DNA of 63,971 bases, filler included, from Acidimicrobiia bacterium (GTDB lineage: Bacteria; Actinomycetota; Acidimicrobiia; Spongiisociales; CAZKJJ01): assembly GCA_046759765.1 (NCBI GenBank). It is 4 parts of 4 records of this genome, joined end to end, with 100 filler letters (N's around TTAATTAATTAA, not from the genome) between each part and the next. Parts side by side here need not be neighbours in the genome. Positions count along the whole stretch, not along the records: positions 1 to 18,447 come from JBHICV010000036.1; 3 more parts are not named here. The stretch is one strand, 5' to 3'. The position numbers were made by a program, and so were the translations under genes. Positions 630-2,261 of this stretch are shown here, in pieces. Positions within the stretch are counted from its first letter, which is position 1, and the number at the start of each line of letters is the position of its first letter. The notes below the pieces were generated by a model that was not told the DNA's origin, searched no databases, and worked only from the letters and a program-made list of their open reading frames with translations.

Positions 630-1318
630 TGCTTCGTGCCCCACATCAGGAGACCGCCTCCCAACGACATCCGTCGGATTCCGATGTCCGTCAGGCCCGA
701 CGCCTGCCAGATGCTGGCCAGAACCTCGGGGGGGTACTCAGCGTGGAATTCATCGATGCTCCGTCCGAGGAACGACCCGACCCGGCCCCAACCGTTGCCG
801 ATCATGGTGCCGGCCATAGGAAGCCCTATCTGCGTGTAGAGCCTCCATGCAACACCAGGCCATCCGGCCGGCCTGCCGAACTCGAGCATGCCGATCCTGC
901 CGCCGGGCTTCACGACCCGAGCGAGCTCGGACATGCAGGAGGCAACGTCTGTGACGTAGCGCAGCAGGTATCCGAAAGCGACCCCGTCGAATGTGTCGCT
1001 ACGAAGCGGAAGCGCCATGCCTGTTGCCAGCACACCGGTGGCTCCCCGGCGAACGGCATGTTGCAACATGTTCTCGCTCTGGTCGACAGAAACCACCTGA
1101 GCGCCTCGCCTGCTGAGCAGACGCGTAATCGAGCCGGTGCCTGCCGCGACGTCGAGAAACCGGGATCCAGGCCTCACATCGAGGCCCCGCACGAGCTCCT
1201 GCCTCCAACGATTGTCTTGAGCCAGGCTGAGGACCTTTGCCCACCTCTCGTAATCCCGTGCGATGGGCGCAAAGAGGCCCAAGGCAACTGACTCCGGCGC
1301 ATCGGCGAGATCGCCCAC
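626..1318 (-). CDS. UbiE/COQ5-family SAM-dependent methyltransferase
   Basis: LDVAAGTG SAM motif, F..IARDYE N-terminus, ELARVVKPGG motif. Confidence 0.85.
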   Translation of the reverse strand: MGDLADAPESVALGLFAPIARDYERWAKVLSLAQDNRWRQELVRGLDVRPGSRFLDVAAGTGSITRLLSRRGAQVVSVDQSENMLQHAVRRGATGVLATGMALPLRSDTFDGVAFGYLLRYVTDVASCMSELARVVKPGGRIGMLEFGRPAGWPGVAWRLYTQIGLPMAGTMIGNGWGRVGSFLGRSIDEFHAEYPPEVLASIWQASGLTDIGIRRMSLGGGLLMWGTKQ

Positions 1319-1345
1319 GCCGTGACAGTACCGATGTTGGAACTC

Positions 1346-1373
1346 TTGACGTGATGGGATGAGCCTCTACAGT
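1346..1373 (+). promoter_or_regulatory. Sigma70-type promoter for the phhA leader
   Basis: TTGACG (1346-1351), 16 nt spacer, TACAGT (1368-1373); the leader ATG follows 9 nt later, so the leader is near-leaderless. Confidence 0.55.
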
Positions 1374-1382
1374 TCTCACTTC

Positions 1383-1454
1383 ATGCAGGTCAGCTACTAC
1401 GCCTATTTCATCTACCGTCTCCCCGGAGCACGGTACGGGGCGATGCTTATGTAG
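1383..1454 (+). CDS. Putative Tyr-rich attenuator leader peptide MQVSYYAYFIYRLPGARYGAMLM
   Basis: 23 codons with 5 Tyr and 1 Phe, lying between the promoter and a terminator upstream of phhA. Confidence 0.75.
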   Translation: MQVSYYAYFIYRLPGARYGAMLM

Positions 1455-1482
1455 CCACCTGCTCAAATCGCACTAACTGGAT

Positions 1483-1515
1483 GACCCGTACCGAACCGTC
1501 GGAACGGGTCTTTTT
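1483..1515 (+). terminator. Intrinsic terminator (attenuator) in the phhA leader
   Basis: GACCCGT-A-CCGA/ACCG loop/TCGG-A-ACGGGTC hairpin followed by TTTTT. Confidence 0.8.
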
Positions 1516-1550
1516 GATGGCCATGTCAACCAGGAAGGAGGTGACGAGAA

Positions 1551-2261
1551 ATGGACCAATTCAGCGACGAGCAGCACCGAACGTGGGCGGAGCTCTACCG
1601 ACGTCAGGTGCCGCGCATAAGAAAGCACGCCTGCGCCGACTACTTAGCAGGCTTCGACATGCTGGAGTTGCCGGCCAGCGAGATACCCTCGGTTGGCTTT
1701 CTCAACTCAAAGATCACCCCTGCCACTGGCTGGAAAGTGATCAGGACCACCGTCCGGTACTCGGATGCAGACCAGTGGTATGAGCACTTCGACCGGAGGG
1801 AGTTCCTCATCACCGACTACATGCGGTCATGGGACGAGCTCGACTGGACTCCGGAGCCCGACATGTTCCACGACATCTTCGGCCATCTGCCTTTCTTGAT
1901 GCTGCCCCACTACACCGCGCTGCAGGAGCTATTCGCGCCGGCCTACTGGAGGGCAACGACCGAAGAGGAGCGAGAGAACATCAAACGGCTGGCATGGTTC
2001 AGCACCGAGTTCGGCGTCATATCCGAGAACGGCTCTCGCAAGATCTTCGGTACCGGTCTCATGTCGGGGGGCGACGAGATGGACAACGTGATGGCGGGCA
2101 ATGTGCCGATCCATCCGTTCACGATCGAGAATGTCTTGGTCCGCAACAAGGCTGTGGACGAGCAGAACAAGGAGCTGTTCGAGTTCTTGTCGATCGAGGA
2201 GCTAGAGAAGGAGCTAAGCCGCTACTTCGACCTGGTGATGAGCGGAGGCGGCGTGTTCTAG
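1551..2261 (+). CDS. phhA: Phenylalanine 4-hydroxylase (pterin-dependent aromatic amino acid hydroxylase)
   Basis: PEPDMFHDIFGHLPFL and WFSTEFG (His-His-Glu iron triad); AAGGAGG RBS. Confidence 0.85.
   Translation: MDQFSDEQHRTWAELYRRQVPRIRKHACADYLAGFDMLELPASEIPSVGFLNSKITPATGWKVIRTTVRYSDADQWYEHFDRREFLITDYMRSWDELDWTPEPDMFHDIFGHLPFLMLPHYTALQELFAPAYWRATTEEERENIKRLAWFSTEFGVISENGSRKIFGTGLMSGGDEMDNVMAGNVPIHPFTIENVLVRNKAVDEQNKELFEFLSIEELEKELSRYFDLVMSGGGVF

Follow-up and report, generated by a model that had tools for sequence, protein, structure and literature searches.

A tyrosine-rich leader peptide as a candidate attenuator of phenylalanine hydroxylase (phhA) in Acidimicrobiia and other bacteria

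Introduction

Classical ribosome-mediated attenuators, among them trpL, pheL-pheA (PMC3082878), hisL and thrL, begin with a short ORF that carries a run of control codons, and the trp, trpS and leuS attenuators of Actinobacteria (PMC1262725) belong to the same kin. For tyrosine the available part of the latter study gives no such attenuator: it reports no conserved upstream RNA elements for actinobacterial tyrosine operons and places tyrosine under T-boxes. It also holds a cautionary case, ilvB of S. coelicolor, where altering the upstream control codons was without effect. The accessible text of PMC3082878 contains nothing on tyrosine sensing by a leader peptide; attenuators upstream of tyrA operons are predicted in PMC1173090, although the word 'leader' is absent from the portion available.

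Phenylalanine hydroxylase itself is controlled in at least two described ways. In the Bacillus cereus group phenylalanine-4-hydroxylase is under T-box control (PMC2494555, from the sections available), and in Pseudomonas the phhABC operon is driven from a sigma-54 promoter by the activator PhhR and serves catabolism (PMC1173090). Closer in taxonomy are the leaderless poly-Cys short ORFs of mycobacteria, attenuators that act on translation (bioRxiv 10.1101/834739, from the text available).

No description of a tyrosine leader peptide was found in the literature searched, most of it outside subscription papers and supplements. Comparative surveys of attenuation by the Gelfand and Lyubetsky groups (2004, 2010) could mention one.

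Here we describe a candidate attenuator upstream of phhA in a 63,971-nucleotide stretch (filler included; hereafter the window) of an Acidimicrobiia genome (GCA_046759765.1). With the classical attenuators it shares the 1:2, 2:3 and 3:4 helices, a GC-rich terminator followed by a U tract, and a separate ribosome-binding site for the first gene; unlike them it would sense Tyr, it acts on a hydroxylase gene generally classed as catabolic, it is nearly leaderless, and its stop-to-terminator linker measures ∼28 nt. The B. cereus T-box sits on the same gene and exerts RNA-level control by tRNA charging with the logic predicted here, but it binds uncharged tRNA directly, whereas the predicted sensor in the window is the translating ribosome. 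The mycobacterial poly-Cys ORFs also belong to Actinomycetota, lie at the transcript start and work by stalling on an amino-acid run; in contrast, they sense Cys and free a downstream ribosome-binding site, while the output of the phhA element would be an intrinsic terminator, with the Shine-Dalgarno site outside the stem. PhhR of Pseudomonas governs the same enzyme family, but as a protein activator and with the opposite logic.

Results

The phhA locus and its leader

The features of the locus are collected in Table 1. The best solved relatives of the encoded protein are bacterial Phe-4-hydroxylases (E 5e-36) and its closest homologues come from Acidimicrobiia. In a gap-free alignment with a solved enzyme, H107, H112, E153 and W149 each fall on the same residue (His, His, Glu and Trp); we take the first three to be the iron ligands and W149 to be the specificity residue, and the protein has a Biopterin_H domain with the His-His-Glu iron-ligand set. 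Homology, the aligned Trp and the presence of PhhB in the genome suggest that PhhA converts Phe to Tyr.

Table 1. Features of the phhA leader region in window coordinates, and T-box-like leaders of homologous loci (locus coordinates)
Feature	Position	Strand	Comment
Membrane protein	3-644	−	no Pfam match
UbiE-type methyltransferase	626-1318	−	divergent upstream gene
Predicted sigma-70-type promoter	1346-1373	+	TTGACG-16-TACAGT; sole promoter-like site in 1000-2000
Leader-peptide ORF, 23 codons	1383-1454	+	peptide MQVSYYAYFIYRLPGARYGAMLM*
Control codons Tyr5, Tyr6, Tyr8, Tyr11	1395-1415	+	TAC TAC GCC TAT TTC ATC TAC
Helix 1:2	1413-1421 with 1426-1435	+	core of longer hairpin 1385-1462, predicted for untranslated RNA
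Segment 2, antiterminator 5′ arm	1431-1439	+	perfect 9 bp with 1485-1493; includes Tyr18
Intrinsic terminator hairpin 3:4	1483-1510	+	5′ arm 1485-1493 = segment 3
U tract T5	1511-1515	+	seen in sequence
Shine-Dalgarno GGAGG of phhA	1537-1541	+	outside terminator stem
phhA, 236 aa aromatic amino acid hydroxylase, likely phenylalanine 4-hydroxylase	1551-2261	+	PF00351 E 1e-26
T-box-like leaders before phhA	L034:1508-1960, L047:1570-1970, L192:1050-1420		Anaerolineae and metagenome contig

The original prediction described a promoter, a near-leaderless upstream ORF (uORF) with four Tyr at codons 5-11 and three alternative pairings followed by a run of T, and the coordinates of all these parts check on the sequence. 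One promoter-like site was found in 1000-2000, where 0.2 would be expected; the leader ATG follows its −10 hexamer by 9 nt and has no Shine-Dalgarno site, and transcription probably starts at ∼1380, ∼3 nt ahead of the ATG. Beyond the four control codons, the ORF holds a fifth Tyr at codon 18. The proposed 1:2 pairing is exact (1413-1418 is the reverse complement of 1430-1435) but proves to be the core of a longer hairpin, the 2:3 pairing joins 9 bp as claimed, and the terminator, with its T5, consists of a 7-bp stem, an A.A mismatch and an inner stem of 3-4 bp, folding at −18.6 kcal/mol (fold of 1478-1520). A simple terminator scan of the 1000-2000 region did not call this hairpin, likely because of the A.A mismatch, and therefore lends it no support. 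An Rfam search of window positions 1200-1700 returned no family for the element and one chance match (E 1.8); as a T-box (RF00230) the element was rejected, there being no match in the same interval at E up to 5.

Because the methyltransferase gene points away, the terminator serves no upstream gene. That gene begins 28 nt from the −35 box, such that the two promoters must overlap or abut; behind it lies the gene for a membrane protein.

Recurrence of the tyrosine leader

A uORF was scored as a Tyr leader if at least four Tyr fell within eight codons upstream of a gene. In the window genome a single ORF among the 2292 of at least 200 aa has such a uORF upstream, and it is phhA. For comparison among genomes we assembled 80 homologous loci from GTDB genomes and 13 from relatives; after removal of nine duplicates and of eight loci lacking a start codon or 350 nt of upstream sequence, 76 remained. 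Nineteen of these carry the Tyr uORF, against 0.07 expected from shuffled sequence, with none on the reverse strand (0/76) and none downstream (0/70), and Tyr is the sole residue enriched over the controls. A second set, drawn from metagenomes (80 loci, 24 of them dropped as short or duplicate), gave 17/56, again with none on the reverse strand. It counts against an attenuator that 57 of the 76 genome homologues have no strong Tyr leader.

Terminators, defined as hairpins of at most −12 kcal/mol followed by a U run, track the Tyr run. In the first set they stand behind 18 of 20 strong leaders (window included), 4/6 leaders with three Tyr, 4/15 with two and 3/41 with one or none; the corresponding figures in the second set are 15/17, 6/7, 1/4 and 2/28. 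From these we formed a set of 46 leaders, to which the first set contributed 25, the window among them, and the second 21. The 25 were picked by eye for a Tyr run and a terminator; two of them have only two Tyr and three terminators were placed by hand, while L028, L056 and L057 were excluded for want of a terminator. The stop codon precedes the terminator by 21-38 nt in 45 of the 46 leaders, the 28 nt of the window being the commonest spacing. Both Tyr codons are in use (TAC 99, TAT 87). Otherwise the peptides have little in common: their length ranges from 17 to 40 codons (25-locus set) and the Tyr positions shift. The 368 codons of the control windows in the 46 leaders include 3 Phe and 0 Trp, which rules out joint sensing of Phe or Trp.

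Promoter sites similar to that of the window precede most homologous leaders. Of the 40 loci scored, 22 have their first in-frame start 6-11 nt past the −10 hexamer, and a Shine-Dalgarno site is mostly lacking. Covariation is seen at 7 of the 9 base pairs of the terminator stem, a figure that is partly circular, the hairpins having been chosen by folding. Conservation at homologous phhA loci had been named as a check on the prediction, and uORF, spacing, terminator and antiterminator are indeed kept, with compensatory changes; the prediction is supported.

In loci outside the leader set, a search for leaders farther upstream of operons gave no case with at least four Tyr, except L028 and the duplicate L051. 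No additional Tyr copy turned up when 301 genomes of the order were searched with the leader DNA; this search is insensitive, because even the family relative was missed. In a Patescibacteria record (L057:1840-1975) phhA comes after a uORF that has three Tyr in a row and is followed by a short GC hairpin and T7; this hairpin and T run escaped the terminator rule.

T-box-like leaders on the same gene

T-boxes switch genes on when their cognate tRNA is uncharged. Two homologous loci, L034 and L047, have no uORF; they have instead Rfam T-box matches upstream of phhA (E 2e-8 and 4e-9) whose scores of 48 and 51 bits lie under the Rfam gathering score of 93. UAC (Tyr) stands at the specifier position in both, and the two are a sister pair in the tree. 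By eye, the same motifs occur in L192. The UGGNACC motif of the antiterminator bulge is present in 4 of 207 loci and absent from the window's own locus (L082). The T-box-like leaders with a UAC specifier thus give an independent hint, from another mechanism, that phhA is induced when Tyr runs short. Two similar terminator hairpins stand in tandem in both L034 and L047.

Competition between antiterminator and terminator

Untranslated leader RNA is predicted to fold into the long hairpin, with a probability of 0.98 for the pair 1415-1433 and of 0 for 2:3. For transcripts truncated at 1495-1506, placing a masking ribosome on Tyr5, Tyr8 or Tyr11 raised the predicted probability of 2:3 to 0.74-1.0; from codon 14 on the ribosome covers segment 2. 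It had been proposed that the ribosome stalls on segment 1: only Tyr11 lies there, and by these predictions an A site anywhere from Tyr5 to Tyr11 suffices. On the full leader at equilibrium, the antiterminator is not favoured: wherever the ribosome is placed, the terminator prevails (P at least 0.96), and with a stalled ribosome the gap is still +2.0 to +4.6 kcal/mol. Readthrough would therefore have to be kinetic, that is, settled during transcription.

Several comparisons indicate that the 2:3 pairing exceeds chance. In the window the duplex reaches −19.0 kcal/mol compared with −11.1 kcal/mol for 200 shuffles (z −3.6). Across the 25 loci the 3′ half of the uORF forms a stronger duplex with the terminator arm of its own locus than with foreign arms (−16.0 versus −13.6 ± 0.5; 0/10000 permutations), a preference to which shared base composition may contribute. 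A ribosome at the stop codon leaves the terminator a mean energy advantage of 11.9 kcal/mol, and one on the last Tyr a mean of −0.1; part of this drop is trivial, because more sequence is then free, so that the shuffle control matters. Measured against its own shuffles, the uORF 3′ half weakens the terminator (z < −1.64) in 20/25 and 12/21 loci of the two sets, leaving 5/25 and 9/21 leaders short of the threshold; the window gives z −2.2, a value that 2 of 100 shuffles reached.

The nearest homologue, L001 (77% protein identity), adds a natural variant. Relative to the window, CGGTACGGG has become CGGTGCCGGG, GACCCGTACCG has become GACCCGCACCG and ACGGGTC has become GCGGGTC: in effect one linked change that keeps both the 2:3 and the 3:4 helix and turns the fifth Tyr codon into TGC (Cys). 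The position of this codon inside segment 2 had been entered as a caveat. Its location is correct, but the difficulty falls away: with Cys in L001 and the partner base changed to match, the role of the codon is structural.

Taken together, the Tyr-rich leader ORF, the antiterminator arm and the terminator probably make up a ribosome-mediated attenuator that allows phhA to be read only if charged tRNA-Tyr is scarce. The transcript would begin ∼3 nt ahead of the leader ATG, with the ribosome trailing the polymerase. If Tyr were plentiful, the ribosome would clear codons 5-11 and cover segment 2, the terminator would form and the RNA would end near 1515. If Tyr were scarce, the ribosome would wait on codons 5-11 and open the long 1:2 hairpin; 1431-1439, once free, would pair with 1485-1493 before the 3′ arm of the terminator emerged, and phhA would be transcribed. 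In the event of no translation, the 1:2 hairpin would hold segment 2 and the switch would be off. We infer that readthrough at the phhA leader depends on Tyr. The locus shows the features that mark classical attenuators: clustered codons for the product amino acid, an intrinsic terminator before the first gene and, as computed, an antiterminator that lies 3′ of the stalled ribosome and excludes the terminator. Judged from sequence, the element is real and conserved, and has every computable feature of its class.

Gene content and phylogenetic distribution

The attenuator was originally taken to place PhhA in biosynthesis under control by its product, and a lack of tyrA had been suggested as a check. 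In the window genome no tyrA was found: PDH_N had no match above cut-off (one hit reads as ProC) and PDH_C none. Matches above cut-off were likewise lacking for PDT (pheA), chorismate synthase (aroC) and HPPD (hppD), and no aroA was found, the single EPSP-family hit reading as MurA. The genome is 92% complete, so these absences are not proven. On this gene content PhhA would supply the organism with Tyr by hydroxylating imported Phe, and would be controlled by its product.

We compared 79 homologue genomes, incomplete and related, of which 24 have the leader and 55 do not. PDH_C, the C-terminal domain of TyrA, occurs in 4/24 genomes with the leader as against 27/55 without (p 0.011, kin not being independent), and PDH_N above cut-off in 7/24 as against 31/55. 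HPPD matches are found in 19/24 with and 39/55 without (p 0.58). Thus the leader leans towards TyrA-less genomes, yet coexists with Tyr catabolism. Given HPPD in 19 and a TyrA domain in 4 to 7 of the 24 leader-bearing genomes, the element is not confined to auxotrophs. The biosynthetic reading fits the window genome; the HPPD of the leader-bearing relatives speaks against a purely biosynthetic one.

The frequency of HPPD would also suit a switch that works as described but meters the breakdown of Phe and Tyr: as HPPD uses up Tyr, the leader would register the shortage and PhhA would replenish the pathway, much as PhhA is catabolic in Pseudomonas (available text of PMC1173090). We consider this unlikely. 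HPPD is about equally common where the leader is absent, none was found above cut-off in the window genome or in that of L001, the TyrA domain is the rarer where the leader is present (with the same reservation about kin), and a catabolic gene would be expected to answer to its substrate, of whose codons the control windows hold only three.

In actinobacterial loci without the leader (L009, L012, L017, L019; L027, L032) phhA stands directly behind other genes, whose ends presumably belong to an FMN alpha-hydroxy-acid oxidase or to HPPD, by resemblance. This placement suggests catabolic operons where the leader is absent.

In a tree of 86 rows, rooted for drawing only, the window protein pairs with L001 (100/98) within a clade of 34 mostly actinobacterial proteins, the other 32 of which have no leader; most other leaders belong to Anaerolineae and other Chloroflexota. 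That most neighbours in the tree are leaderless, and that the terminator dominates at equilibrium, would be expected if the hairpin were a constitutive or vestigial leaky terminator setting a low level of phhA, and the Tyr-rich ORF a small peptide or a non-sensing relic. This is very unlikely, since the peptide is not conserved but only its Tyr run, written in both codons, along with the spacing, antiterminator pairing is kept in L001 by compensatory change, and the terminator is useless to the divergent upstream gene. It is scarcely credible that, as in TnaC, a nascent peptide binds free Tyr or Phe and stalls the ribosome, with induction by excess rather than shortage: basic residues do follow the Tyr run in several leaders (YRR, SRRE), but no peptide motif or length is conserved and Tyr positions vary, an intrinsic terminator and antiterminator stand at classical spacing, and T-boxes with a UAC specifier, which respond to uncharged tRNA, take the place of the leader in homologues. 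A TnaC-type sensor in the strict sense (arrest peptide at fixed spacing, Rho-dependent output) was rejected, the peptides being unconserved beyond Tyr and the terminator intrinsic.

More distant PhhA families were scored with the same uORF test. None of 28 new loci of distant Chloroflexota had at least four Tyr in eight codons (2 of 30 repeated earlier loci). Among the best-matching loci, 2/28 from Acidobacteriota and 3/30 from Gemmatimonadota pass, and 7/30 of the latter combine three or more Tyr with a terminator; 0/7 best-matching archaeal homologues have the uORF. The counts for these last three groups omit the locus of the query itself, a short locus and a genome that is unpublished.

One archaeal record (L028:1867-1917) has, 80 nt ahead of phhA, a 16-codon uORF whose end carries five Tyr within six codons, together with a hairpin but no clear U-tract terminator. 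We do not claim archaeal attenuation: no strong terminator was found behind this uORF, and the distant archaeal homologues gave none.

Discussion

The attenuator reading sets phhA beside the classical leader-peptide operons. The mechanism would be the classical ribosome-mediated one, and what is likely new is the sensed amino acid, Tyr, and the target, phhA, a combination of which we found no description. The surprise is limited, because the mechanism is textbook and T-box control of phhA is already published.

A broader proposal, which we put forward tentatively as a serious possibility, is that aromatic auxotrophs in several phyla ration their synthesis of Tyr from Phe by Tyr leader-peptide attenuation of phhA, a widespread and undescribed device that is interchangeable with a Tyr T-box on the same gene subfamily; it includes an Acidimicrobiia scaffold re-tuned by a swap of control codons, with Tyr before phhA and Cys before a cysteine-synthase-like gene. 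Should the attenuator reading of phhA hold, tyrosine would be added to the list of amino acids that leader peptides of the classical kind can sense, and PhhA would stand out as a tyrosine supplier in uncultured bacteria, Acidimicrobiia and Anaerolineae among them, which could not be told from gene content by itself. The alternation of leader peptide and T-box before homologues of one gene offers a natural comparison of two sensors of tRNA charging. At 170 nt the element is small enough for direct testing and could serve as a Tyr biosensor.

The Cys version of the scaffold comes from a genome of the same order (G617; L210:1353-1550), where TTGACC-17-TACAGT precedes a near-leaderless ORF, MKQFTSSAAACCCCCRAIQPGGATLSC, in what looks like a Cys-codon attenuator. 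Its terminator is 88% identical to that of the window over 33 nt (E 7.5e-5 for one genome, with 301 searched), and the gene behind it reads like a putative cysteine synthase. Possibly the same scaffold has here been re-tuned from one amino acid to another.

Under the same uORF test, seven long ORFs of the window genome have a His-rich and two a Trp-rich short ORF upstream, most of which may be chance frames.
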